64,000 bases of DNA from an uncultured Christensenellaceae bacterium (GTDB lineage Bacteria; Bacillota; Clostridia; Christensenellales; CAG-314): the NCBI GenBank assembly GCA_910587795.1, contig CAJUNH010000002.1, positions 135,400-199,399 of the forward strand, in the 5' to 3' direction. Under the pieces are notes generated by a model that saw nothing but the letters and a program-made list of their open reading frames with translations, had not been told where the DNA came from and made no database searches. This document shows positions 21,364 through 44,644 of this stretch, in pieces. A program made the position numbers and the translations under genes. Positions within the stretch are counted from its first letter, which is position 1; the number at the start of each line of letters is the position of its first letter.

Positions 21364-22728
21364 TTATCTGTTATAAATTTTATCGCGGATATCTTTAACG
21401 CGGGCGGCGGTAATATCGTTATTTTTACACTCCTCGCTAATTTTATCGCGGGCGTGCATAACGGTGGTGTGGTCGCGTCCTCCAAAGTATTCGCCTATAG
21501 AAACAAGAGGAACGCTTTGCCCCAAAATATCGCAAATCAAATATATACATACTTGACGCGGAACTACTATTTCTTTATTTTTCTTTTTGCCGATAATATC
21601 TTCCTTACGCACACCGAAGTAATCGCACGTGGTTTTTACAATTTGATCGATAGTTATAATGTCGTTGGACGAATCGGCATAGTCGCGCAAAGCGTCGTTT
21701 ACGATATTCATATCGTTTGGGTCTCCGCCTACCAACGTACTGTAACTTATAATGCGGTGGAGCATTCCCTCCATTTCGCGTATATTGTTGGTTATCTTTT
21801 CCGCAATCAAACTTAATACTTTAATGTTTAAACTGTACCCGCGGGCGTTGCATTTTTTTTGCAAAATAGCTATACGCGTTTCCAAATCGGGAGGCTGTAT
21901 ATCCGCAATTACGCCTGTGGCAAATCTCGTTTTAAGACGTTCCTCAATTTTTATTTCCTTCGGCGGACGGTCGCTGCTTAATATAATTTGCTTTTCGGCA
22001 AGATACAGCTCGTTAAAAGTATGGAACATTTCTTCCTGCGTACCCTCTTTATTTGCAAGGAATTGCACGTCGTCCATCATTAAAACGTCCAGCTTACGGT
22101 ATTTATTTCTAAAATTTTTCATTGCGTTGGGGTTTGCTGTATCGTGCAGAGACTCGATAAACTCGTTTACAAACTGATCGCAAGTTACGTATTTTATTTT
22201 CTTTTCTGGAAAATTCCTCTGTAAAGAATTTCCTATCGCGTGCATCAGGTGGGTTTTTCCCAATCCTACGCCTCCCCACAAAAATACGGGATTGTATTTT
22301 ATTTCCTTATTTTCCGCCACGGCATGCGCAACGGCGTTGGCGTATTCGTTACTTTTTCCTACTACAAAGTTATCAAACGAATATTGCGCAACAAATACAG
22401 CCTTGTCATCCGTAATAGATACGTAATTGCCGCTTACCGGCAAGTCTACTTCCTTATCCACCTTGCCTATATTATCCAAATCTCCGTCGGTTATTATTTC
22501 TACGTCTAATATTGTGGGAAACACCAACGCAGTACATTTTTTTATAATATCCTTATAATTTTTATCGATTATATTTTTCAGCGCTCGGGTTTCGGCAAGC
22601 AAATACAGTCTGTCGTTATGTATGCCTACCGGCTGCAGTTGGTTTATATACAAATCGTACTGCAATGTGGATACCTTCGACTCGGTTTCCAGCAAAATAT
22701 TGTCCCATATTTGATTTAATTTAAGCAT
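21364..22728 (-). CDS. dnaA: chromosomal replication initiator protein DnaA
   Basis: AAA+ Walker A GGVGLGKTHLMHAIGN, box VII/sensor motifs, C-terminal DNA-binding HTTVMHARDKI. The start is taken at MLKLNQIWDNILLE (22728); the track ORF begins at a TTG at 22803 with no RBS. Start uncertain by up to 75 nt. Confidence 0.95.
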   Translation of the reverse strand: MLKLNQIWDNILLETESKVSTLQYDLYINQLQPVGIHNDRLYLLAETRALKNIIDKNYKDIIKKCTALVFPTILDVEIITDGDLDNIGKVDKEVDLPVSGNYVSITDDKAVFVAQYSFDNFVVGKSNEYANAVAHAVAENKEIKYNPVFLWGGVGLGKTHLMHAIGNSLQRNFPEKKIKYVTCDQFVNEFIESLHDTANPNAMKNFRNKYRKLDVLMMDDVQFLANKEGTQEEMFHTFNELYLAEKQIILSSDRPPKEIKIEERLKTRFATGVIADIQPPDLETRIAILQKKCNARGYSLNIKVLSLIAEKITNNIREMEGMLHRIISYSTLVGGDPNDMNIVNDALRDYADSSNDIITIDQIVKTTCDYFGVRKEDIIGKKKNKEIVVPRQVCIYLICDILGQSVPLVSIGEYFGGRDHTTVMHARDKISEECKNNDITAARVKDIRDKIYNR

Positions 22729-22817
22729 AGTACATTTATTATACACGGATTTATTTAAAATAGCAAGTTTAATTTGCGCCGTTGTTGACAACAATTTAGA
22801 CAAAGGAGATACTGAAA

Positions 22818-23839: not shown

Positions 23840-24946
23840 TTATACGATTTGTTTTACGGGCAAAATAAAGTACAAAACTTCATCGCTGTCGTAAATAGTT
23901 ATAACGCAGCTGTTATGTTGGGCAAATTCCATTTTAATGCTTTCCGCAGACATAACCTTTAAGCAATCGTTTATAAAACGGGAGTTGTATGCGCAACGCA
24001 CGTCCTTACCGTTTAAGCTGATTGTAATGTTTTCCTTGGCCGTGCCGTACTGGCTTGTAGAGGATATAGTCATACTGTATTCCTCTATATTAAATACAAC
24101 AAGGTTGTTCTTTTCGCTGCGGGACATAATAGACGCCGTATTTAAAGCTTTTTCAAAAGTTTCCTTATTAACTATCAGCGTCGACAGAAAATCCTTAGGT
24201 ACAATATTGTCGTACTTGATGTACTGTCCGCCCAGCAATCGCGTAAACAGCTTAGTGTTTTCCATGGCAACCATCAAATAGTTGTTTTCTATAAACACTT
24301 TCAAAACGTTATCGCTGTCGGTCAACAGCTTTGATAGCTCCGATAAACTTCGGGACGGAATGGTTGCGCTGATTTCGTCGACGCGTTCCTCCAAGGCTTT
24401 TTTGCTCATTGCAAAACGGTAGCCGTCGGTTGCCACTGCGCACAGCGTGTATTGTTTTGCTTCGAAATGTACGCCTTTAAGCATAGGGCGGCTGTCGTCG
24501 GTTGCCACTGCAAAAATAACGTTATTGATAATTTCTTTCAAGTTCATTTCCTGTACGGCAAAGTAACTTGCGCCGTTTACGGTTTCCACTTCGGGATATT
24601 CCATAACGTCCAAAGTGCTTATCGTACATTCGCTGTTTGCCGAACTTATAAACAATCTGTTGTCGTCGGCAATTTCCAGCGAAATATCGCTGCCGTTATC
24701 TGCAATATTGCGTATATATTCGCCGAAGATCTTTCCGGGAACAAGCAAACCTCCGCCGACAATAACGTTTGCGTCTATGGATTTTTCGATAGCAAGGTCT
24801 TTATCCGTAGCGTACAGCGTCAGTCTGTCGTTTTCCGCCGTAATCTTTATACACTCCAACACGGGAGCAACGTCGCGGTTAGGCAACGCTTTGGAAACTT
24901 TGGCGACTGCGTCGTTTAAATCCAAACTGTTTACAATGATTTTCAT
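23840..24946 (-). CDS. dnaN: DNA polymerase III beta sliding clamp
   Basis: 368 aa from MKIIVNSLDLNDAVAKVSKALP, a typical DnaN N-terminus with three-domain length. GGAG RBS before the ATG at 24946. Confidence 0.95.
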   Translation of the reverse strand: MKIIVNSLDLNDAVAKVSKALPNRDVAPVLECIKITAENDRLTLYATDKDLAIEKSIDANVIVGGGLLVPGKIFGEYIRNIADNGSDISLEIADDNRLFISSANSECTISTLDVMEYPEVETVNGASYFAVQEMNLKEIINNVIFAVATDDSRPMLKGVHFEAKQYTLCAVATDGYRFAMSKKALEERVDEISATIPSRSLSELSKLLTDSDNVLKVFIENNYLMVAMENTKLFTRLLGGQYIKYDNIVPKDFLSTLIVNKETFEKALNTASIMSRSEKNNLVVFNIEEYSMTISSTSQYGTAKENITISLNGKDVRCAYNSRFINDCLKVMSAESIKMEFAQHNSCVITIYDSDEVLYFILPVKQIV

Positions 24947-24989
24947 AATAAGCACTCCTTACAAGTCTTTTGATTTTGTCTTTCGTCAC

Positions 24990-33286: not shown

Positions 33287-35185
33287 ATGGCTAATTTAAA
33301 ACTAAATCACATTTATAAGGTGTATCCAAACGGAGTAAAAGCGGTAAACGATTTTTCTATGGATATTGCCGATAAGGAATTTATAGTTTTTATAGGACCG
33401 TCGGGATGCGGAAAGTCCACTACGTTGAAAATGATAGCAGGCTTGGAAGAAATTACGGCGGGCGAGCTGTGCATAGGCGATACGGTGGTAAACGACGTAG
33501 AACCTAAGGAGCGCGATATAGCTATGGTTTTCCAAAACTATGCGCTGTACCCGAATATGACGGTTTACGAAAATATGGCGTTCGGTCTTAAACTGCGCAA
33601 AATGCCCAAAGAAGAAATAGACAAAAAGGTGCGCGAAGCGGCGCGTATACTGGGCATAACGGAATATCTGGACCGTAAACCTAAGGCTATGAGCGGCGGA
33701 CAGCGTCAGCGCGTTGCGTTGGGCAGAGCAATCGTCCGCGAGCCTAAAGTATTTTTGCTGGACGAACCTTTAAGCAACTTGGACGCAAAACTGCGTACGG
33801 CAATGCGCGCGGAAATAAGTAAGCTTCACCGCAAGCTGCAAACCACCTTTATTTACGTAACTCACGACCAGGTAGAGGCTATGACCATGGGTACGCGTAT
33901 CGTCGTAATGAAGGACGGCTTTGTTCAGCAGATAGACAGTCCGCGTAATTTGTACAACTTCCCCTGCAATAAATTTGTGGCGGGCTTTATCGGCACTCCG
34001 CAAATGAACTTTTTTAAAGGCAAGCTTTTAAAGCGCGGCGATAAAGTTACTGTATCGTTTGACGACACCGACGTAAAACTTACTGCGTCCGCAAGCATAT
34101 TCAACAAAGCCAAAGCGGAGTATTTGGACGGAGAAAGACCCGTTACAATCGGTTTGCGCGCCGAACATATCTCGGTTGACGCAAAACAGTACCCGTACAA
34201 AGCAAAGTGCCGCGTATCGCATATAGAGGAGTTGGGTGCCGATTGTCAGGTGTATGCCGACTTTAACGCTGAAAACGGCGACGGCGTAGGCGAAAGCCCC
34301 ACGAGAGTTATTATAAAAGCTCCCGCCGGCAGTTTTTACGAAGCGGACCAAATGATAGAAGTATCTATGGATTTAACCCGTATCCACGTTTTCGACGCGG
34401 AAACGGAAGAAACGATTGCTCCGCGTGTTCCTGCCGAAGTTTCGGCTGCGGCGTCGGTAAAGGGCGCAAAGCTTACGTTAGCGGGCGCGGAGATCGAACT
34501 GCCCGAAGCCATAAAACTTCCAAGCGGCAAGTACGAAGTAATAATACCGACGTCAGCGGTTGCTTTGGGCGGCGATATAGCTGCGGAAGTTACCGATACC
34601 GAACAGGTAAACGACAAAAAACTTATTTACCTTAACGCCGACGGCAAAGCGCTGTTTGCGCTGGCGGATATGGACGCAAAAATAGGAAAGACCGAAAATA
34701 TTTCTATCGACCTTAAACAGCTTACGTTTGTTAGCGGCGGACAAACGGTTGCGGCGGCGTTAAATTGCGTAAACAGCTTAAAAGGCAAAATAACCAAAGA
34801 AAAAATCGTTGTGGAAAAAGAAGTAAAAGGCAAAATAAAAAAAGTCAAAGATTATGCGTTTTCTTTGGAGTGCTGCGGCGCAAGTTTCGAGTGTTCGCGT
34901 TCGCTTGCGATACGCTTGATTAACGGCGGCGGTCAGGATGTATTTAATAAGGATTTGGAATTCAGATTTAGTCCGTACGACGTAATTATAAGCGAGCAAG
35001 GCATAGACGCCTCTGTCGAAAGTATTATAGATTACGGCAAAGAAAGTTTTGCCGTGTGCAAAGCGGGCGACGCTGCCGTAAACGTTTCTGTGCCGCACGG
35101 ATTCGGTTTGACAAACGTCAAGTTGGCTTTGGACGTAGAAAAACTTGCGGTAGTCGAGGTTGCCCGTTCAATCCGTTTGGCGTAA
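33287..35185 (+). CDS. MalK/MsmX-type ABC transporter ATP-binding protein with a ~260-aa C-terminal extension
   Basis: Walker A GPSGCGKST, Q-loop, signature MSGGQRQR, Walker B FLLDEP. A TOBE-like region is followed by extra sequence, giving 632 aa versus ~370 for typical members. Confidence 0.85.
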   Translation: MANLKLNHIYKVYPNGVKAVNDFSMDIADKEFIVFIGPSGCGKSTTLKMIAGLEEITAGELCIGDTVVNDVEPKERDIAMVFQNYALYPNMTVYENMAFGLKLRKMPKEEIDKKVREAARILGITEYLDRKPKAMSGGQRQRVALGRAIVREPKVFLLDEPLSNLDAKLRTAMRAEISKLHRKLQTTFIYVTHDQVEAMTMGTRIVVMKDGFVQQIDSPRNLYNFPCNKFVAGFIGTPQMNFFKGKLLKRGDKVTVSFDDTDVKLTASASIFNKAKAEYLDGERPVTIGLRAEHISVDAKQYPYKAKCRVSHIEELGADCQVYADFNAENGDGVGESPTRVIIKAPAGSFYEADQMIEVSMDLTRIHVFDAETEETIAPRVPAEVSAAASVKGAKLTLAGAEIELPEAIKLPSGKYEVIIPTSAVALGGDIAAEVTDTEQVNDKKLIYLNADGKALFALADMDAKIGKTENISIDLKQLTFVSGGQTVAAALNCVNSLKGKITKEKIVVEKEVKGKIKKVKDYAFSLECCGASFECSRSLAIRLINGGGQDVFNKDLEFRFSPYDVIISEQGIDASVESIIDYGKESFAVCKAGDAAVNVSVPHGFGLTNVKLALDVEKLAVVEVARSIRLA

Positions 35186-35810: not shown

Positions 35811-35838
35811 TTGACAAACGGAAAAAGTGTGGTATACT
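35811..35838 (+). promoter_or_regulatory. strong sigma-A promoter of the collagen-like/RHS operon
   Basis: TTGACA (35811-35816), 16-nt spacer, TATACT (35833-35838), with a TGg extended -10. Confidence 0.65.
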
Positions 35839-36033: not shown

Positions 36034-36975
36034 ATGGAATTTATAAACAGAGTAAGTGCGGAAAAAGGCAGAATTAAATTAACGAAAAGCGACGGCACGG
36101 AGGAAATATGCACCGTACAGATGTGTGATGACGCAAATCCGCAGGGAACGCCGCTAAACAAGCAAACGTTCGACGATTTTAAAGAGGATATTTTAAACAC
36201 GGTATCAAAATTAAACTCTATAACGGAAACTTTGGTATACGGCAAAACAATCAGCGTAACCGATACGGTCAATTTGGAAAACACAGATGTTACTTTAACG
36301 TTAGACGGTTTTAACCGTACGCCCATTGTAGGCGAAACGTTTATCGGTATATTTTATTCCGTCGACGGTATCAGCGAAACGTCGTGCATATCCGTATGTA
36401 AAGTTATGCAAGTAACTTCGTCTGCAAACACTTGTATGGTAAAAGCGGTAAGCCGCCGAGTAGATACGTCGGGTATCGCTATAAAGTCCGTTACACACAG
36501 CGGACAGGACGTTAACGGCGGAAATGTGTACACAGTTCTTCTTTCCAACGGCGCAAAAGTATACTTTACCGCACCGCGCGGCGAAAAAGGCGAGAAAGGA
36601 GAAAAAGGTGATAAAGGCGACAAGGGCGATAAAGGCGACAGAGGATATAAAGGAGATAAAGGCGATCGCGGCGAAAAAGGCGAGTGTATTTTTATCGAAC
36701 CCAGCGGCGAGTATATTGTCAAAGGCGAAAAAGGAGATAAGGGAGACAAAGGCGACAAAGGAGAAAAGGGCGAAGGCGGCTCCGGCGTGTATCTGTCAAG
36801 CGAAGGTTTTACTGCCGGCGTAGGCAGATACGACGTAAGCAGCGTTGCATACAACAAACAGGAACTGTGCGCCGGCGACCTTATACTGTCCACGTCAACC
36901 AAAAATATGGTGCGCGTAAGGTCGTTGACAAGCGACGGGTTTATGTTTATAGGCGAATATGTTTTAACTCTGTAA
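36034..36975 (+). CDS. collagen-like triple-helix-repeat protein with a tail-fibre-like N-terminus
   Basis: Two Gly-X-Y tracts: (GEK)3(GDK)3GDRGYKGDKGDRGEKGE at 36580-36684 and GEKGDKGDKGDKGEKGEGGSG at 36724-36786. The N-terminal NRV...GTPLNKQTF resembles prophage tail-fibre N-termini. AAGGAG RBS. Confidence 0.8.
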   Translation: MEFINRVSAEKGRIKLTKSDGTEEICTVQMCDDANPQGTPLNKQTFDDFKEDILNTVSKLNSITETLVYGKTISVTDTVNLENTDVTLTLDGFNRTPIVGETFIGIFYSVDGISETSCISVCKVMQVTSSANTCMVKAVSRRVDTSGIAIKSVTHSGQDVNGGNVYTVLLSNGAKVYFTAPRGEKGEKGEKGDKGDKGDKGDRGYKGDKGDRGEKGECIFIEPSGEYIVKGEKGDKGDKGDKGEKGEGGSGVYLSSEGFTAGVGRYDVSSVAYNKQELCAGDLILSTSTKNMVRVRSLTSDGFMFIGEYVLTL

Positions 36976-37019
36976 GACAGCGGCGGCGTAACGTAATTAA
37001 TAAAAAAGGAAATAACAAT

Positions 37020-40000
37020 ATGAAAGATAACTATGAAATTATAAAAGATTGTTTGTCGGGTGCGGAGCCGTCTGCAAAAAACGGTTTTAACGCGGACAGC
37101 ACAAACGCCGCGGTAAATTTTTCGCAGGCGGAAACGGGCAGTAACCCGAGCGTAAACCTTGCGACAGGCAGGCTGCGCTACGTATTCGGCGACGTAAGCA
37201 TAGGTTACGGCAATTTTGCAATACAGGTAAACCACGTTTATACAAGCACGCGTAACAGTAATTTTAAAAATAAATTCAGCGAATTCGGCAATAACTGGAA
37301 GCTGAATTTATCGCAATGCGTTGTAAACGGCGGAGTAGACTTTTTATATATGGACGGGCAGGGCGACGTGCACCGCTTTGTAAAATTCGACGGCGACCGC
37401 TACTATGACGAATGCAACGCAAACCTTGTGCTGTCCGTAGAAAGTTCTGCTATTAATAAAATAAGGTACAACTACGTTATTACGGATAACGTAGGTAATA
37501 AAATGTATTTCGGCGAAAACGGCTTAATTATTGCAGCCCAAGACGGTCATAACGCGTCTATGATAAAATGTTTTGTATATAATGGAAATAATTTACTTAC
37601 CGAAGTATACGACGCACGAACAGAGAAAAAATGCATACGCTTTGAATACGACGGACAAAATAAATTAAAGTCCGCTTTTGCTTACAGCAACTACAGCAAA
37701 AAAGTTTCCGGTATAAAATACGAATACGACTCTAACGGTAATTTGCAGAAAGTATATAAAACGGCTTTTAACAAAGGCGCGGAGGAAGTTTTTTGCAGAG
37801 AAATGTACCGATTCGAGTACGGCTCGTACAGTAACCTAATCCAAATAGTCGACTTGCAAACAACCGAAGCTGTTGCAATAAAATATAACAACGAAAAAGC
37901 GGCGGAAAAAATCACGTCTGGCGTTTTAAAGCAGGATTGTATAGCGGTGGGTCAAAATCTGTATGCGGGCATGGCGGAGTGCGGTATGTTAGACAATCGG
38001 CAATTTATCCCTAAACACAGTCTAAGCTTTTTTTACACCAAAGGGAAAGACGGCACGGCGCAGGAAGTGCAAATTACAAACGAGGACGGAATAAAAATCG
38101 CCTACTTTTTAAATACGGCAGGTAAAATCGTCAGCTCGTTTGAAGTAACAGAAGCTAATATTTACAAAACGCTTAATAAGCAGGGCGCAAAACATTTACT
38201 AAATGCGTCGGGGCAAGCGCAAACGACAATAAACGGTTATAGTCCCCTCGCTTCAAGCGGCAGCAGCGTAAACGTTTCTGTTCCAAGCGGGTTCGATTTG
38301 GCAAATAACAAAGCAGAAAAAAAGTACAATTATTTTCAGTACTCGTTTTGGCTTAAACTTTTAAGCGACTGTCATCTGCCGCAAGCAATGGTGACATATA
38401 AATTTGAAAATAACGATCAGCAGCAGCAACAAGTTTACATAGACGGAAATGCACAAAACGTCTGGCAAAAAGTATCTCTTCCCGTAATTGTTCCAAATCT
38501 CGAAAACGATTCAAATACGGATAAAGAAAATAATCCCCAAACGGATAAACTTCAAGCCATTATAATCAGTCTGTTAAGCGAAGGCACGTTTAGTAATTGC
38601 GATTTTGAAATAATAGAAATCGGCTTTGAGCCCGCGCCTCTTACAACATCATTTTTAAGCGACAGCAAATTGTATGATGTAACGGAAGTAAGGCTGACGG
38701 TCAAAAACGGCAACGATCTTCAAACGCAAAAAAAAGTAATTAACCGAAATTTGTTTTTTACCGAAAACGATATTTTGGCAACGGCAAGCCGAAAGTTTAT
38801 GTTTCCCAACGGCGCGGACGGGTGTTTTGACGTAATATGCAATAACGGCACTAAGCGTATAGGCAGCGTAAAAACGATAGAGTTTAAAACGGACGGCGTA
38901 TTTTTCAGTCCGTATGTCCCCTATTATAGTTTTTTTACCGCGTTAAATACCGTCGTTCAACTGCAATACGGAAATAAAATAACATCTCTGTACGATTACA
39001 ATGATCAATGCGTTATTATGCAGACACAAGGCGTAAACGCCGAGGGTACAAGCAGTTTAATAGAAGTTTCCGTAGACAAGTACGGCAAAACACTGTACAA
39101 AAAGGACGAATACGGTGTAAAAACGCAGTACGGCTACAACTCTTTCGGCGCTTTAATCAGCGAAAAAGTAACCGATAAATCCTACGCGAAAAGGTCGGCA
39201 TTATATTACAGTTACGATAACGAAGGCAGGCTGTCCGCTAAACACAACGGTTTACGGGGCGAAACTTATCAGTATGACGACTACGATAAAATTTACAAAA
39301 TAACAGACTGCAAGGTTGTAAACGGCAAGCTGCAAGCAATGAAGCACAGCATACGCAAGTATTACGACATTTTTAACGATAAAACAACAAAGCAGTACGA
39401 AAACAACGGCAGCCGAGATCACGCCTGCACCGTTGCCGAATATCAAAACGGGCTTACCCGTACCGTAACGGACGGCGTGGCAAAGTACGGAGCAGTTCGC
39501 TATCCCGAACAGGACGAAGTACAGTACACAACTTTTTGGTTTGGCGAAGGCAAAGCGCAAACCGATACCGTTACCAAAAACAACGAGGGCGAAAAAACTT
39601 ACACAAGCAAATGCGGATTAAACCGAATAAGTAAAACCGTAGACGCGTACAACAGAGTAAAGCAAGTTTCAATGCAAGCCGTAAACGACGATTACGAAAG
39701 TACAGAAAATACTTTTACTTACCATTACGATAATTTAACCGAAAGTAAATTTGCAAGCAAACCTTATAAGCTTACAAACGGCATCACAGACGTTACGGAA
39801 TACTTTTACGACGGCAGCGGCAATCTTACGGGCTACATCCAAAAAGACGGCGATAAAACTTTAATGGAAGTACAGCAGCTTCCTTCGGGAGCTACAAAGT
39901 ATAAATACTCAAACCGGGACAAAATTTATGTTTCGGTAGAACACGACAGCGAAAAAACACTCAATCCGCGCGTACGTTCGATAAAATATTTGGAGGACTT

Positions 40001-41747
40001 TAACACAAACTTCGATAAACCCGAAGTTACTCCGTTGTTCCAAATAGACTATGCGGAAAATGAAATAAACGGACTGCCTACAAAAAAAACAGTGCGCCAC
40101 AAAACAAAAAAGGGTTCCGTCGAGGACTATTCCTACATAACCGTAAACGGAGTGACGCAGCTCGAAAAAAGTAATTACAGCGGAAAATGTTGGCAGGGCA
40201 AAAATGAAGGCAACGTCTGCGAAAGTAAATACGATATAACTTATCAGTACAACGACGTGGGCGAAATAACCCAGATAGTCCGCAGTGTGGATTGGAAAAT
40301 ATACGGCGGCGACAATTTGCAAGACAGTTACAAACGCAGCTATACTTATAAATACGAGTATAACGACCTGCATCAGCTTACAAAAGAACGGCTGGAATCG
40401 CACGGCGCAGACTATACCTACGATAAATACGGCAGGCTAAGCTCTGTAAACGGCAAACAGCTGCAATACGACAGCGCGTACAACCGTTTGGATATATTCG
40501 GCGATACACATTTTTTTTACGACGGCAGCGGCAACAGAACCAAGGAAATAACAACGGGACAGCAAATAAAACGTTATACTTATCTTTGCGGTTTGTTAAC
40601 CGAAACAAACAACGCCGTATACGGTTATAACCAAAACGGCGTGCGTAACAAAAAGGTTAGCGGCGGCATAACGACAAAATATATATTGGACGGCAATAAA
40701 ATCCTGTGCGAAGTACAAACCGGCGAGAAAATCAGTGATTTATATAATGATGACCAAAGGGTTGTTCAGTACTTTTACGATACAAACGGCATAGCATATA
40801 TAAAAATAAACGAAATCGTATACGAGGCAGTGCGCGACGCTTTGGGCAACGTTGTTATGCTGCTAGACTACGACAGCGGCGTTGTGGCGTGCTATTATCT
40901 TTACGACGCTTTGGGCAACTGCTACGTAAAAGACAGCAAAGGCGACAGCGACAATAATCCCAAATCCATAGGCAATACCAATCCGTTTAGATGGAAAGGT
41001 TTTTACTACGATACGGAAACGGGCTTTTACTACGCCAACGGCAGGTATTACGACCCCAAAGTAGGTCAGTACTTAAACGCGCCGCCGTTAAGCGACATAA
41101 TGCAAACCCCGTTCCGTCCCCGCATACTTGACAGGTACACTCCTATATGCAATAATTTAATAGAATTGGCGTATAACCCTGTTTCGGCATTTACCGTAAC
41201 GCAGCTGTTTGCCGACCTTAACTATGCGGACGACCAACAGCCGCTGTGGTATTTAATTTTAGGCGGCGCATTAGCCGTAGGTTCGTTTGTTCTAGCCGGA
41301 TTTACTGTTGGCTGGGGCAAAGCAATAGCAACCACGCTTATCGGCGGCGCTGTAGGAGCAGGCTTTGGTGTGTTAAGCGCACATATAACCGGCGGAGATA
41401 TTAAAACCGGCGCAATGTTTGGTATGTTATCCGGCATTATAGCAGGGAATACTGCTTCTTTCGGCGGATTGACGGTAGGCTTTATAGGCGGAGCTATTGC
41501 CGGCGGATATACGGAAATAGGCGGACAATTATTTCAATCCGGACAAGTAGTAGATTGGGATAAAGTTTACCAAAAAGCAATAGATTCAGGCTTTGTGAAC
41601 TTGATTTCAACTTATTTGGGTGCTATGACAGAAGATTTAAAAGGTTTTAAAAAGCTTTTAGCTGAATTTGTGTCGGATAGCATTACAAATGGAATATCTC
41701 TATTTATTGACTATATTAGGAGTTTAATACGTGAAACTTGGCATTAA
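37020..41747 (+). CDS. RHS/YD-repeat polymorphic toxin (~1575 aa)
   Basis: N-terminal SVNLATGRLRYVFGDVSIG. Many YD repeats (YSYDNEGRL, FYDGSGNLTG, YTYDKYGRL, YGYNQNGVR). Core end NPFRWKGFYYDTETGFYYANGRYYDPKVGQY, then a divergent 219-aa C-terminal domain. The ATG at 37020 has an AAGGA RBS; the track ORF from 36867 overlaps the upstream gene. Confidence 0.9.
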   Translation: MKDNYEIIKDCLSGAEPSAKNGFNADSTNAAVNFSQAETGSNPSVNLATGRLRYVFGDVSIGYGNFAIQVNHVYTSTRNSNFKNKFSEFGNNWKLNLSQCVVNGGVDFLYMDGQGDVHRFVKFDGDRYYDECNANLVLSVESSAINKIRYNYVITDNVGNKMYFGENGLIIAAQDGHNASMIKCFVYNGNNLLTEVYDARTEKKCIRFEYDGQNKLKSAFAYSNYSKKVSGIKYEYDSNGNLQKVYKTAFNKGAEEVFCREMYRFEYGSYSNLIQIVDLQTTEAVAIKYNNEKAAEKITSGVLKQDCIAVGQNLYAGMAECGMLDNRQFIPKHSLSFFYTKGKDGTAQEVQITNEDGIKIAYFLNTAGKIVSSFEVTEANIYKTLNKQGAKHLLNASGQAQTTINGYSPLASSGSSVNVSVPSGFDLANNKAEKKYNYFQYSFWLKLLSDCHLPQAMVTYKFENNDQQQQQVYIDGNAQNVWQKVSLPVIVPNLENDSNTDKENNPQTDKLQAIIISLLSEGTFSNCDFEIIEIGFEPAPLTTSFLSDSKLYDVTEVRLTVKNGNDLQTQKKVINRNLFFTENDILATASRKFMFPNGADGCFDVICNNGTKRIGSVKTIEFKTDGVFFSPYVPYYSFFTALNTVVQLQYGNKITSLYDYNDQCVIMQTQGVNAEGTSSLIEVSVDKYGKTLYKKDEYGVKTQYGYNSFGALISEKVTDKSYAKRSALYYSYDNEGRLSAKHNGLRGETYQYDDYDKIYKITDCKVVNGKLQAMKHSIRKYYDIFNDKTTKQYENNGSRDHACTVAEYQNGLTRTVTDGVAKYGAVRYPEQDEVQYTTFWFGEGKAQTDTVTKNNEGEKTYTSKCGLNRISKTVDAYNRVKQVSMQAVNDDYESTENTFTYHYDNLTESKFASKPYKLTNGITDVTEYFYDGSGNLTGYIQKDGDKTLMEVQQLPSGATKYKYSNRDKIYVSVEHDSEKTLNPRVRSIKYLEDFNTNFDKPEVTPLFQIDYAENEINGLPTKKTVRHKTKKGSVEDYSYITVNGVTQLEKSNYSGKCWQGKNEGNVCESKYDITYQYNDVGEITQIVRSVDWKIYGGDNLQDSYKRSYTYKYEYNDLHQLTKERLESHGADYTYDKYGRLSSVNGKQLQYDSAYNRLDIFGDTHFFYDGSGNRTKEITTGQQIKRYTYLCGLLTETNNAVYGYNQNGVRNKKVSGGITTKYILDGNKILCEVQTGEKISDLYNDDQRVVQYFYDTNGIAYIKINEIVYEAVRDALGNVVMLLDYDSGVVACYYLYDALGNCYVKDSKGDSDNNPKSIGNTNPFRWKGFYYDTETGFYYANGRYYDPKVGQYLNAPPLSDIMQTPFRPRILDRYTPICNNLIELAYNPVSAFTVTQLFADLNYADDQQPLWYLILGGALAVGSFVLAGFTVGWGKAIATTLIGGAVGAGFGVLSAHITGGDIKTGAMFGMLSGIIAGNTASFGGLTVGFIGGAIAGGYTEIGGQLFQSGQVVDWDKVYQKAIDSGFVNLISTYLGAMTEDLKGFKKLLAEFVSDSITNGISLFIDYIRSLIRETWH
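41693..41725 (+). repeat. toxin 3'-end/RBS segment that recurs before each immunity paralog (master copy)
   Basis: aatatctctatttattgactatattaggagttt. Compare with 42338-42368 and 42996-43026. Confidence 0.7.
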
Positions 41748-42249
41748 AAATAACGAGTTCATAACTTGCAATGTACCTTTTCTAGGATTAGTTTCGCTTT
41801 TTTCTATAACTTGGGCAATTAGTTTCGACCTTTCTGTACTCGCTATCGTGTTGTTATGTATTGGAGCGGGAAGCATAATTTTAACGGTTGTTACAAATAT
41901 ACCTAATATGCTAAACTATATATTGATTGACGATGAAACAATTACGCTTTATCGCCATAAAAAGCCTGTAAAACAAATAAATATAGCGGATATAAAATCT
42001 TTGGTGCTTTGTCAACATGTAGGTAGGGTACGACATAAAGCTAGTAAATACATAAATAAAATTACTTATGTCGTAATAAACGACGGAAATTTTTTAGAAA
42101 AACAATGGACGAAACGGGAACTACGCAAAAAAATATTGAGTGACAGCGAGGGGTGGATTGCAATAGAATATTCTGCTAATCGGTACGCCAAAATTAAACA
42201 ATTCCTTCCAAACTGTGAAGTTGAAACGTGTGCAATAACAAGAAAATAA
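41731..42249 (+). CDS. 2-TM membrane protein, putative cognate immunity protein (paralog 1 of 3)
   Basis: GTG start 8 nt after AGGAG, overlapping the RHS stop by 17 nt. Two N-terminal TM helices plus a ~100-aa soluble domain (ILIDDETITLYRHKKPV...WIAIEYS...LPNCE). Confidence 0.6.
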   Translation: MKLGIKNNEFITCNVPFLGLVSLFSITWAISFDLSVLAIVLLCIGAGSIILTVVTNIPNMLNYILIDDETITLYRHKKPVKQINIADIKSLVLCQHVGRVRHKASKYINKITYVVINDGNFLEKQWTKRELRKKILSDSEGWIAIEYSANRYAKIKQFLPNCEVETCAITRK

Positions 42250-42321
42250 ATTATTGTTCCATCAATCAATTTAACGATTATTCAACAACGCAGGGAAATG
42301 TATCCTTCTTACTTTAATAAT

Positions 42322-42330
42322 GGGGGGGGG
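42322..42330 (+). repeat. G9 homopolymer tract upstream of immunity paralog 2
   Basis: taatGGGGGGGGGtattgttaatatc. The flank resembles the G10 tract at 28937-28946. A TGtTAATAT extended -10-like element lies directly downstream. Confidence 0.85.
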
Positions 42331-42337
42331 TATTGTT

Positions 42338-42368
42338 AATATCTCTGCTAGTTGTATATAAGGAGTTT
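42338..42368 (+). repeat. relic of the toxin 3' end plus RBS
   Basis: aatatctctgctagttgtatataaggagttt aligns with 41693-41725. Confidence 0.65.
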
Positions 42369-42373
42369 AGCAC

Positions 42374-42898
42374 ATGAAAATCGGTTTTAATAATAACGAA
42401 GGAATAAATTTAAATGCGCTTTGTATATGCGCAATTGCACTTTACTTAATGGCAATGGCAATCGGCTTCAGATATACGGTATTCGCGATTATATTGTTAT
42501 GTTTTGCAGGGATAAGCATTATTTTTACCGTCATTAGAAACATACAAAATATACAGAATTATATTTTAATTAACAATGAAGCAATTACGTTATATCGTAG
42601 AAAAAAGCCTGTAAAACGAATAAATCTTGCAGACGTAAAGTCTATAGTACTTGTGCAATATATATTTAGTGGGCGAGGAGCATTTAATCCGGACAAATGT
42701 ATAAATACAAACACTTATATTGTATTAAACGATGGGGCTTTTTTTAAAAAAGAATGGACAAAGAGTAAATTTCGTAAAAGAGCATTAAGTGACAGCGAAG
42801 GGTGGATTGCAATAGAATTTTCTTTTAAACGCTATGCCGCCCTTACTAAGCTACTGCCAAACTGTGAAGAAGAAAAGTACACACTAACAGGTAAATAG
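42374..42898 (+). CDS. 2-TM membrane protein, immunity-like paralog 2 of 3
   Basis: By eye about half of positions are identical to paralog 1 over the full length (YILINNEAITLYRRKKPVKRINLADVKSIVL, SDSEGWIAIEFS, LLPNCE). AGGAG RBS. Confidence 0.6.
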   Translation: MKIGFNNNEGINLNALCICAIALYLMAMAIGFRYTVFAIILLCFAGISIIFTVIRNIQNIQNYILINNEAITLYRRKKPVKRINLADVKSIVLVQYIFSGRGAFNPDKCINTNTYIVLNDGAFFKKEWTKSKFRKRALSDSEGWIAIEFSFKRYAALTKLLPNCEEEKYTLTGK

Positions 42899-42995
42899 TT
42901 TTTAAGTAGTCAAAATTTTTAAAAATTGATTAACGGCGCAATGAAGTGTAACCTTCGCATTTTATAAATTACACGATTGATCGGGTAATTAGTTT

Positions 42996-43026
42996 AATAT
43001 CTTTGTTTTTGAGAATATTAGGAGTT
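42996..43026 (+). repeat. relic of the toxin 3' end plus RBS
   Basis: aatatctttgtttttgagaatattaggagtt aligns with 41693-41725. Confidence 0.6.
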
Positions 43027-43032
43027 CGATTT

Positions 43033-43581
43033 ATGAAGATGAAGATTGGCATCAATTATAACAAAACAATAAATGCTATAATGACTCCTATAGTGGGATT
43101 AATTATTATGTTTATTATAGGGTCTTTTCTTAAAGGTAAAGTTGTTCTCGCTATTGTATTGTTATCGATTGCAATGGGAATTATCATTTTTATTGCCATT
43201 AGAAATATTAAAAATGTGTTAAACTACATATTGATTGACGAAGAAGAAATCACGCTTTTTCGCCGTAACAAGCCTGTTATACGAATAAAACTAGCAGATA
43301 TAAAATCTTTAGTATTATGTCAACAAACGTTGCAGCGTAGAGGTCAATACCATCCTGATCAATTTTCCAACTCTAATTTGTTTATTTTAATCAATGACGG
43401 AACGTTTTTAAAAAAAAGTTGGACAATACGTAAATTGCGAAATAAGATGTTAGTTAACAGTGAAAAGTGGATTGCAATAGAATTTTCTTCTAACCGCTAT
43501 GCCGCTTTTAAACATTTACTTCCAAACTGTGAAATAGAAACGTGTACAATACGTGGATCAATAATTAGGATAGGAGATTAA
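43033..43581 (+). CDS. 2-TM membrane protein, immunity-like paralog 3 of 3
   Basis: MKMKIGINYNK... has the same architecture and motifs (YILIDEEEITLFRRNKPV, WIAIEFS, LLPNCEIETC). AGGAG RBS at 43019-43023. The track ORF starts 30 nt earlier. Confidence 0.6.
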   Translation: MKMKIGINYNKTINAIMTPIVGLIIMFIIGSFLKGKVVLAIVLLSIAMGIIIFIAIRNIKNVLNYILIDEEEITLFRRNKPVIRIKLADIKSLVLCQQTLQRRGQYHPDQFSNSNLFILINDGTFLKKSWTIRKLRNKMLVNSEKWIAIEFSSNRYAAFKHLLPNCEIETCTIRGSIIRIGD

Positions 43582-43611: not shown

Positions 43612-43643
43612 GCGCAGAGGTTATATTCCTCTGCGCCGTTTTT
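43612..43643 (+). terminator. intrinsic terminator closing the RHS/immunity operon
   Basis: Perfect 9-bp GC-rich stem gcgcagagg / cctctgcgc with a 7-nt loop, followed by ttttt. Confidence 0.8.
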
Positions 43644-43655
43644 ATGTTGTTGTTT

Positions 43656-44417
43656 TTATAAAATAATCAGCGATACTACAAACGGAATAATAAGGTATAC
43701 GGCAAAGGCAATCCAACTTTTGGTTTTTACGGCGCGCATTACCATATAAATAGACACAAGTCCCGATACAAATGCGGCGAATACGCCTATTACGATACAG
43801 TACCAATCGGGTATAACCAACTCGGTAGTTGCCGCTTCGTATATTTCCGCTGCGGCGCCGGCAAGTATAACGGGGATAGACAGCAAAAAAGAAAACTCCG
43901 CCGCGTCGCTTGCGTTTATGCCGAACAGCTTCATTACGGATATCGTGCTTCCGCTGCGCGACAGCCCCGGAAAAACGGCAACACCTTGGGTTACGCCCGT
44001 AACTATTATCGGCAGCCAGCCCGATTCGTCCAGCCTTAGGCGCGGTTTAGACAAGTATTGCGACAGCACAATCAGCACAATCGTCAAAGCAAAGCCGACG
44101 GGCAGCAGCATTTGCATTAGGCTTTCGCTTACAAACAGTTTTACAAGCAATGCCAACGCAAACGTAGGGATACTTGCAATTACCAAAAACAGCAATTTGG
44201 GGTTGGACTTAGGGTGGCGCACAACGCTCCAAAGGTTCTGTCTAAATGCAATCGCCACCGCGGCAAGGGTGCCCAAATGTAACATCACGTCAAAAAACAG
44301 TCCCGCGCGTATGTCGAATAATTTTTCCGCAAGCATTAAATGCCCGCTGCTGGAAACGGGCAAAAACTCCGTAAATCCTTGTAGTAATCCTAAAAAAATA
44401 CTTTGCAGTACCGTCAT
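43656..44417 (-). CDS. uppP: undecaprenyl-diphosphate phosphatase
   Basis: N-terminal GLLQGFTEFLPVSSSGHL and PGLSRSGSTI motifs. Start taken at MTVLQS (44417). Confidence 0.9.
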   Translation of the reverse strand: MTVLQSIFLGLLQGFTEFLPVSSSGHLMLAEKLFDIRAGLFFDVMLHLGTLAAVAIAFRQNLWSVVRHPKSNPKLLFLVIASIPTFALALLVKLFVSESLMQMLLPVGFALTIVLIVLSQYLSKPRLRLDESGWLPIIVTGVTQGVAVFPGLSRSGSTISVMKLFGINASDAAEFSFLLSIPVILAGAAAEIYEAATTELVIPDWYCIVIGVFAAFVSGLVSIYMVMRAVKTKSWIAFAVYLIIPFVVSLIIL

Positions 44418-44644
44418 AATCCACCTTTTTGCCTTGCTATGTTTGCAAAAAAACGGCGTGCGCAGCAATAAATGCAAAGCGTCCGTTGTTTTAAGCCGTT
44501 AAAAATACGCGCGTAAGCAGGCTAAAATTTTCAAACCGAGGTAAATTCATTTACATTTGATAATAAATATAGTAGAATATCCCTGTATAAATGTTTGCAC
44601 ATATAATTGTACGCATTTTTGTATATTTTTAGACCGAGGTAGAT

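Follow-up and report, generated by a model that had tools for sequence, protein, structure and literature searches.

The window analysed here is a stretch of 64,000 nucleotides from an uncultured Christensenellaceae bacterium (contig CAJUNH010000002.1, positions 135,400 to 199,399). It contains a gene for a large RHS protein with a glycine-rich, hydrophobic C-terminal domain (CT), followed by three genes for small proteins, here called imm1, imm2 and imm3. An initial annotation had read the CT as a glycine-zipper toxin and putative pore former, and the downstream genes as immunity-like. The open reading frame (ORF) of the RHS protein spans 36867-41747 on the plus strand; its most plausible start, an ATG at 37020, gives a protein of 1575 residues, in agreement with the residue numbering used in that annotation. 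The features that make up the putative toxin and its immunity genes are the following.

37020-41240, plus strand: RHS/YD-repeat shell and RHS-associated core, with Pfam, NCBIfam and solved-shell profile matches
41241-41525, plus strand: glycine-zipper membrane module, the "constant" half of the CT; 95 residues, four predicted transmembrane (TM)-like helices in two hairpins
41526-41744, plus strand: allele-variable amphipathic tail, the putative "specificity" half of the CT; 73 residues, two predicted helices
41528-41915, plus strand: contiguous hypervariable cassette, recognized from DNA identity with allelic loci; spans the toxin tail and the TM hairpin at the N-terminus of the imm1 product
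41731-42249, plus strand: imm1, cognate immunity candidate; 172 residues, two predicted TM helices and a putative C-terminal pleckstrin homology (PH)-like domain
42374-42898, plus strand: imm2, orphan immunity-like paralogue; 174 residues, 52% identical to imm1
43033-43581, plus strand: imm3, orphan immunity-like paralogue; 182 residues, 51% identical to imm1

The body of the protein is a typical RHS shell. RHS/YD repeats are recognized by Pfam RHS_repeat (PF05593, 1.1e-8) and TIGR01643 (27.4 bits, cut-off 15.8), and the RHS-associated core model TIGR03696 scores 36.3 bits against a cut-off of 32.5 over residues 1309-1359, ahead of the variable CT. Solved Rhs shells, including that of Tse5 (8cp6_B), are matched in a PDB profile search, within the core only. 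Neither a PAAR nor any other N-terminal domain is found by Pfam or NCBIfam, and neither collection gives an LXG/WXG match. The core end carries NPFRWKG at 40980-41000 and YYDPKVGQY at about 41046-41072. The toxin domain had initially been placed from 41088 onwards (219 residues). The first 53 of these residues, up to about 41240, lie outside the toxin and form a divergent RHS-core end, in which LDRYTPICNN takes the place of the canonical NLYAYCNNNP and which closes with ...FADLNYADDQQ; the released CT therefore probably begins at about 41235-41241. The first aspartyl-protease motif (YYDP) is present, and the position of the second, canonically DPxGL, reads ADLNY in the window family, where relatives carry PDPxY. 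In one distant family member, P0038, the glycine-rich block lies directly behind a canonical ...NNNPVTNVDPNG cleavage motif (VDPNG before TM1), and the presence of this ...YAYCNNNPVTNVDPNG motif directly ahead of the block fixes the start of the CT.

The CT itself (about 41235-41744; 170 residues, 17.6 kDa) consists of the 95-residue block and the 73-residue tail. The translation of 41241-41744 is identical to the sequence quoted in the initial annotation, and the hydrophobic, glycine-rich character described there is real. The block (PLWYLILGG...YTEIGG) includes the motif SAHITGGDIKTGAMFGMLSG, which forms its TM2-turn-TM3 segment, and the zipper stretch GGDIKTGAMFGMLSG. Counted over 97 residues from 41235, it has 26 glycines (27%, vs 7.4% in the RHS body), a combined Gly, Ala, Ser and Thr content of 53% and only four charged residues, and its 19-residue Kyte-Doolittle means reach 1.8. 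Against 5000 composition-preserving shuffles of this stretch, [GAS]xxx[GAS] occurs 24 times vs 18.1±2.4 (p ~0.011) and the C-terminal glycine-zipper pattern GxxxGxxxG five times vs 1.6±1.3 (p ~0.03); small-residue autocorrelation is +0.22 at lag 4 and negative at lags 2-3. Plain GxxxG, with nine occurrences vs 6.4, is not significant (p 0.14), so the repeated small-residue spacing noted earlier holds for these two patterns and not for the simple one. The tail is amphipathic, as had been described, with a helical hydrophobic moment of up to 0.67. An AlphaFold2 model built on a 16-sequence alignment predicts six helices, in line with the proposed multi-helix module: four in the block (residues 4-25, 27-52, 56-76 and 79-102) and two in the tail (108-134 and 138-169).

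The reported lack of enzyme motifs in the CT is borne out by every search made. Pfam and NCBIfam give no credible match at E<=0.1, PHROGs give none, a PDB sequence search gives none at E<=10, and a Foldseek search of the AlphaFold2 model against the PDB gives none below E=1.1. Nor does the CT match the Pfam glycine-zipper families PF13488, PF13441, PF13436 and PF05433 at E<=0.1; one relative, P0116, matches PF13436 weakly (14.7 bits, cut-off 27). The one row that NCBIfam returns, a TauC permease model, reflects composition noise (18.8 bits, cut-off 342). The Foldseek matches are generic helical membrane proteins at E>=1.1; they include four-TM complex-I subunits with TM-scores of about 0.4-0.5 and are not significant, and a Tim17/NDUFA11-like relationship prompted by the Foldseek ranks was rejected as unsupported.

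All three downstream genes are paralogous, and each product has an N-terminal hydrophobic region predicted to form two TM helices, in agreement with their earlier description as integral-membrane proteins. imm1 starts with GTG at 41731 and overlaps the RHS ORF by 17 nucleotides, with its Shine-Dalgarno sequence, AGGAG at 41718-41722, inside the last codons of the toxin; this arrangement suggests that imm1 is translationally coupled to the toxin. imm3 starts with ATG at 43033, preceded by GGAG 8 nucleotides upstream, and its close relatives P0168 and P0170 begin with MKMKIG. No toxin remnants lie between the three genes, and no CT-like sequence occurs elsewhere in the window. The AlphaFold2 model of the imm1 product (predicted local distance difference test, pLDDT, 78.5) has TM helices at residues 9-31 and 35-61 and a beta-rich domain. 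Foldseek places PH/PTB domains on top (myosin-1c tail, Spt16, talin and IRS-1; E 7.7e-3 to 0.3), and the best match combines E 7.7e-3 and a probability of 1.00 with a TM-score of only ~0.3 over the whole model. None of the immunity proteins matches Pfam bPH, and all stay below the 40-bit cut-off of the STM3941 family (NCBIfam NF041635), with 25.2 bits for imm2 and 14-15 bits for imm1 and imm3. The family is small, with about 24 clusters at 90% identity, unnamed and without a Pfam match. A promoter-like sequence, GTGACA-18-TAGAAT, recurs at the same 3' position of each of the three genes (42140-42169, 42789-42818 and 43454-43483). Another, strong promoter-like site by consensus match, TTGACA-17-AATAAT with a TG extension, lies in the 3' region of the RHS gene on the plus strand (41128-41156), just upstream of the CT and immunity genes, and may serve the latter as an internal promoter.

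Variation and conservation of the putative toxin-immunity pair

Close relatives of the CT are few. A word-indexed protein search returns 11, at 56-88% identity, many of them ORFs of 150-170 residues, which are explained by the syntenic loci. Peptide patterns of the CT find no relative among GTDB species-representative genomes, and tblastn finds no match in plasmid and phage collections. The loci L001/L002, L090 and L091/L092 hold the same RHS gene with differing CT tails. The RHS gene is 96% identical in L001/L002, and a nucleotide comparison gives about 93-100% over its 3' core. Among these close alleles, mean identity is 81% for the TM block and 55% for the tail. In L090 (2450-7155) the RHS frame is split into ORFs of 1169 and 384 residues, which reflects either a pseudogene or an assembly error.

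At the nucleotide level, the allelic loci match the window at about 100% up to 41272 and at 78-95% over the TM block (41273-41527). The values are lower in the tail bins (41528-41707; 50-73%), reach 61-92% over the junction (41708-41762), drop to 43-71% over the TM hairpin of imm1 (41763-41915), and are higher once more in the part encoding the PH-like domain. The dips in the toxin tail and in the immunity hairpin thus form one contiguous hypervariable cassette with conserved DNA on both flanks. L001 and L092 also hold extra orphan toxin modules that start inside TM1, each followed by its own immunity paralogue, and in both loci the same tail type precedes the same immunity protein. The conserved TM block is the homology that the orphan modules have in common with the main gene, and because these modules start inside TM1, the block may act as a recombination handle for cassette swaps. 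A polymorphic CT, an immunity gene downstream and orphan CT-immunity modules are together the hallmarks by which RHS polymorphic toxins are recognized, and all three occur in the window or its syntenic loci.

More distant members were sought in an exhaustive hidden Markov model search of 1.84 billion representatives, with matches sorted by the profile range that they cover. The RHS core dominates this profile, as it does in the PDB profile search, because three long sequences turned core columns into profile positions; the TM block alone was therefore retested by phmmer with reversed decoys and by hhalign with reversed and shuffled decoys. Four divergent proteins (P0012, P0013, P0018 and P0038) carry both the TM block and a window-type tail, at 35-43% identity to the window CT. 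With the block alone as query, phmmer gives E 2.6e-18 for P0013, 6.3e-16 for P0012 and 1.6e-8 for P0038. The tails of P0012, P0013 and P0018 are clearly hydrophobic. Among the 150 matches listed from the 1.84 billion representatives, the toxin family amounts to about six clusters at 50% identity.

A homologue of the window immunity protein lies directly downstream in all four of these distant loci (P0018/L083, P0038/L084, P0013/L085 and P0012/L086), each with two predicted TM helices and the same C-terminal domain. Against a seven-sequence database, three of the four are clear (27-30% identity, E 4e-10 to 6e-18), and the one in L084 is weak (E 0.007-0.2) with the same architecture. Toxin and immunity gene are therefore a conserved pair, and the genetic coupling of the CT to membrane immunity-like proteins, first seen in the window, extends to these four divergent members of the family.

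A glycine-rich block in Clostridia RHS proteins

The block is not confined to the window family. Among the matches listed, 103 have at least 170 residues after NPFRWKG, and in 89 of these a Gly/Ala-rich hydrophobic block of about 95 residues follows right behind the RHS core, a count that is biased upward since the search profile itself contained the block. The module, a definition of this analysis and not a curated family, is taken as a hydrophobic block of ~95 residues that starts 60-115 residues after NPFRWKG and contains TM2-[NST]GG[DN]-TM3; the window CT fits it. The blocks have in common a tryptophan-rich start, TM1, TGG, TM2 and the pattern [NST]GG[DN][IVF]xxGAxxGxxxG. Aligned with hhalign, the block of the window family matches that of twelve soluble-tailed proteins (94% probability, E 1.4e-7, score 44) over TM2-turn-TM3 and in register, vs scores of 19.7 for the reversed decoy and at most 17.2 for 20 column-shuffled ones. 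Several enzyme-tailed members also come up at E 0.002-0.07 in a phmmer search with only the block as query, in which the best reversed decoy has E 1.9.

What follows the block differs widely. The rest of the protein stays hydrophobic in 57 of the 89 carriers; in the other 32, a non-hydrophobic domain of at least 90 residues comes next. Among 34 relatives picked for soluble tails, the toxin domains recognized by Pfam are PT-HINT (6), GIY-YIG (2), Ntox21, Tox-REase-7, Tox-HNH-EHHH and LHH. Further tails look deaminase-like (P0037, P0148 and P0021) or nuclease-like (P0036 and L021) by eye, and those of them that were scanned match no Pfam family. Since the block precedes nuclease and PT-HINT domains with soluble immunity, a zipper by itself is no mark of a pore former, and the initial annotation's appeal to it as a hallmark of membrane-depolarizing toxins does not hold. 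PT-HINT and nuclease domains behind the block suggest that in these relatives it is probably a device for membrane insertion or translocation.

Across relatives that have the TM block in common, the type of downstream gene follows the tail and not the block, as seen behind enzyme- or soluble-tailed relatives at three loci, one of them partial: soluble ORFs follow in L021 (nuclease-like tail; 91 residues), L089 (deaminase-like tail; 201 residues) and L087 (P0127; partial). This pattern argues against a need for immunity to the block alone, which is then probably not lethal on its own, and in favour of hydrophobic-tailed versions acting in the membrane. P0036 and P0056 are nearly identical in the RHS end and TM1-2 and then diverge. 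P0036 continues into its soluble tail, and P0056 into hydrophobic helices followed by a 157-residue protein with three TM segments. The two (L021 1554-7476; L093 532-2059) form a natural pair that could separate the module from the toxin function.

No description of a glycine-zipper module behind the RHS core was found in the 2012 census of polymorphic toxins (PMC3482391) or in the full texts searched. Compared with the putative membrane toxin itself, the more interesting result, as judged from sequence comparison, concerns its glycine-zipper half, a pre-toxin module common among Clostridia RHS proteins.

Genomic setting of the island

By its YchF protein the organism belongs among uncultured gut Clostridia, with 90% identity to Christensenellaceae/Clostridia MAGs and 85-86% to Candidatus Fimimonas. 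In its genome the RHS locus is a small island, bordered by an ABC ATPase gene on one side and by uppP/ychF on the other. The island comprises a gene for a 313-residue collagen-repeat protein, the RHS gene and the three paralogous genes for 172-182-residue proteins, and its G+C content falls to 30-34% over 41500-43500. Three further features frame it.

35811-35838, plus strand: strong promoter-like site, TTGACA-16-TATACT with a TG extension; 11 of 12 matches, consensus match only
36034-36975, plus strand: 313-residue protein with collagen-like G-x-K (GxK/GDK) repeats; Pfam Collagen 2.2e-8
43612-43636, plus strand: strong terminator-like hairpin closing the operon; 9-bp stem with 7 GC, followed by a T-run

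The site at 35811-35838, upstream of the gene for the 313-residue protein, is the probable start of the operon. Its gene lies directly ahead of the RHS gene, and in the syntenic L001/L002 the protein is 99.7% identical (RHS body 96%); in L090 and L091 a gene for 313 residues takes the same position. PHROG phage tail-fibre families match the protein via the repeat. It may act as a partner or a surface fibre of the RHS protein, in which no secretion signal is recognizable.

The genes found among the larger ORFs at 20.3-33 kb are housekeeping genes, for example dnaA, dnaN, DegV and ABC ATPase. Both dnaA (21364-22803) and dnaN (23840-24955) are encoded on the minus strand, separated by a rubrerythrin gene on the plus strand, and their presence indicates that the window adjoins the region of the replication origin. 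No type VII secretion system (T7SS) genes occur among the flanking genes scanned or in the annotation of the syntenic L001, from which the downstream side was judged. The ABC ATPase bordering the island (33287-35185, plus strand; 632 residues) is MalK-like: ABC_tran, OB_MalK and TOBE_2 cover about 370 residues, and its C-terminal extension of about 260 residues has no family match. On the other side, a 194-residue ORF (43918-44502, plus strand) lies antisense to uppP (BacA; 43656-44477) and is almost certainly spurious.

Proposed action, alternatives and known systems

The most likely reading, held with moderate confidence, is that the CT is a two-part toxin which acts on membranes and is not an enzyme. 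It retains part of the initial membrane-toxin interpretation, on different grounds: no enzyme domain is detected, the helical tail varies among alleles, and the immunity partner is a predicted membrane protein. In the model proposed here, the RHS shell would house and shield the 17.6-kDa hydrophobic CT. The protein would be exported and meet its target, and the CT would be released from the cage. The four zipper helices would then insert spontaneously into the target cytoplasmic membrane and, together with the two tail helices and probably as an oligomer, form an ion-conducting leak or pore that dissipates the membrane potential. The imm1 product would protect the producer by binding the variable tail of the toxin inside the membrane through its own variable TM hairpin, and its PH-like domain would presumably face the cytoplasm. 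imm2 and imm3 may provide extra immunity against tail alleles of neighbouring strains. The block in relatives would likewise enter the membrane and take PT-HINT or nuclease cargo to the other side. The sequence analysis itself establishes the anatomy, the homology of the module, the lack of enzyme signatures, the conserved linkage of toxin and immunity genes and how variability is distributed; the steps of the model are inferred from these.

Several observations weigh against this model. Pore formation is no more than suggested by architecture and by analogy with other toxins. The block is common to enzyme-tailed toxins that have no apparent need for membrane immunity, and as the block alone is probably not lethal, the toxic principle must involve the 73-residue tail, a part in which the AlphaFold2 model is less certain (pLDDT 52-55, compared with a moderate 66.5 and a predicted TM-score of 0.58 for the whole CT). 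The comparison of downstream genes behind enzyme- and soluble-tailed relatives draws on the three loci described above. Export and release add further difficulties. Neither a secretion signal nor an N-terminal signal peptide is identified on the RHS protein by Pfam, NCBIfam or its sequence, no secretion-system genes occur among the larger ORFs upstream (20.3-33 kb), and with ADLNY in place of DPxGL, autoproteolytic release of the CT can be no more than presumed.

In an unlikely alternative, the glycine-zipper block would only anchor or translocate and the tail would be a small effector that blocks a membrane-associated target without forming a pore, for example a transporter, a step in cell-wall precursor synthesis or a divisome component. 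In its favour, nuclease-tailed RHS proteins have a homologous block ahead of their toxin, and their loci lack membrane immunity genes; variability and co-variation with immunity are concentrated in the tail; and the glycine zipper of Tde1 is needed for translocation and not for DNase activity (PMC10240207). The tail, however, is short and amphipathic to hydrophobic, clearly hydrophobic in P0012, P0013 and P0018, and has no recognizable fold or family. Moreover, the variable part of the immunity protein is a predicted TM hairpin, which suggests helix-helix contact within the membrane, as with pore-forming toxins.

The window CT might also be a decayed allele that has lost an ancestral enzyme domain and kept the translocation module with a meaningless remnant, and the locus would then no longer encode an active toxin; in favour of this, enzyme-tailed relatives are common, and the RHS ORF is split in the syntenic L090. 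This is highly improbable: the window ORF is intact, TM block and tail have stayed together, at 35-43% identity, in four divergent lineages that each have a matching immunity gene, and discrete tail types each have their own immunity gene, a pattern typical of active toxin-immunity arms races. Very little credence is given to the idea that the protein is no toxin at all, in which case its C-terminal helices would serve as its anchor in the membrane of the producer itself, for surface display or export, and the two-TM proteins encoded downstream would be unrelated membrane proteins. Such an anchor would agree with the need for some unconventional membrane step in a protein that has neither an N-terminal signal peptide nor a known secretion domain. 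The position of the block behind the RHS-associated core, though, is that of the encapsulated toxin in all solved Rhs proteins (PMC8636562, PMC10684867), and orphan modules, polymorphic tails, coupled immunity paralogues and nucleases behind the same block follow the logic of polymorphic toxins.

Beyond the two-part membrane toxin favoured here, a wider proposal is offered tentatively and is on balance doubtful: the block may represent an undescribed, widespread module of Gram-positive RHS toxins that lies inside the cage ahead of the toxin, inserts itself into the cytoplasmic membrane of the target and carries whatever is fused to it, such as PT-HINT, nuclease or deaminase-like domains, across. 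On this view the window family would descend from such a form: the translocator, joined to a short variable helical tail, would itself have turned into the weapon, against which a new immunity family would combine two TM helices with a PH-like domain. Little is known of the way in which RHS and other polymorphic toxins get through the cytoplasmic membrane of the target, notably in Gram-positive bacteria without a type VI secretion system (T6SS), and an intra-cage module of this kind, if real, would explain how their cargo does so. The locus and its relatives provide a natural series, in which one and the same RHS end and block lead either into a nuclease, paired with soluble immunity, or into a short hydrophobic tail, paired with membrane immunity. 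This series makes it testable whether the block is a self-inserting translocation device and what minimal addition turns a translocator into a depolarizing toxin. The pair is also a rare new toxin-immunity system from uncultured gut Clostridia, and the adjacency of the variable regions of toxin and immunity in the DNA is convenient for studies of specificity.

Among known systems, Tox-WTIP is the only pore-forming toxin domain in the 2012 census (PMC3482391). Like it, the window CT is a small, hydrophobic, non-catalytic domain on an RHS protein; unlike it, the CT carries neither the RxxR nor the Wx[ST]IP motif of that proteobacterial, two-helix domain. A C-terminal glycine zipper is also found in the membrane-depolarizing Firmicutes antibacterial LXG toxins of the T7SSb, TelE (PMC10434224) and EsxX (PMC12744356), in which it is needed for membrane toxicity; EsxX is countered by the membrane-protein immunity ExiCD, and other strains carry orphan immunity genes. 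The window CT has the same type of motif, whereas the window toxin sits in an RHS cage, without an LXG/WXG domain or T7SS genes nearby. No family-level match links it to TelE or EsxX, which were compared via family profiles and not sequence to sequence.

For the block, the nearest parallels are the glycine zipper of the T6SS DNase Tde1, a translocation segment (PMC10240207), and the prePAAR/TM-domain segments of T6SS Rhs effectors (PMC8636562). These permeabilize or insert into the target membrane and so carry enzymes across it, and the block likewise stands ahead of PT-HINT and nuclease domains in relatives. They are N-terminal, bound to chaperones or adaptors and outside the shell, whereas the block lies between RHS core and toxin, where it would be inside the cage, and in contrast to Tde1 no enzyme is attached in the window protein.

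The closest functional counterpart of the window pair, which is known here from its sequence, is Tse5 (RhsP1)/Tsi5 of Pseudomonas aeruginosa. Tse5 is an Rhs protein whose hydrophobic CT of ~16 kDa is chaperoned by the shell, depolarizes cells and is blocked by the two-TM protein Tsi5; according to the published model, the shell escorts the toxin, an integral membrane protein, to the membrane of the target (PMC9637101, PMC10684867). The earlier remark that a hydrophobic cargo inside an RHS shell is uncommon is correct for the described literature, in which Tse5 is the studied case, and not for Clostridia sequence space. The two systems differ in several respects. The window CT shows no sequence or fold similarity to Tse5 (PDB E<=10, with 8cp6 matched in the shell only; Foldseek none below E=1.1), and its host is a Gram-positive-type gut Clostridia member without PAAR or T6SS. 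It is bipartite, with a conserved module and a variable tail, and the zipper module also occurs in nuclease-tailed relatives; the immunity protein has a putative additional PH-like domain. Both systems nevertheless combine an RHS shell with a hydrophobic, non-enzymatic and predicted helical CT of about 15-18 kDa, and both place directly downstream a gene for an immunity protein with two TM helices, predicted as such in the window. The 17.6-kDa window CT is also comparable in size to reported Rhs cargos, which measure 15-16 kDa in cavities of ~32,000 Å^3 (PMC10684867).

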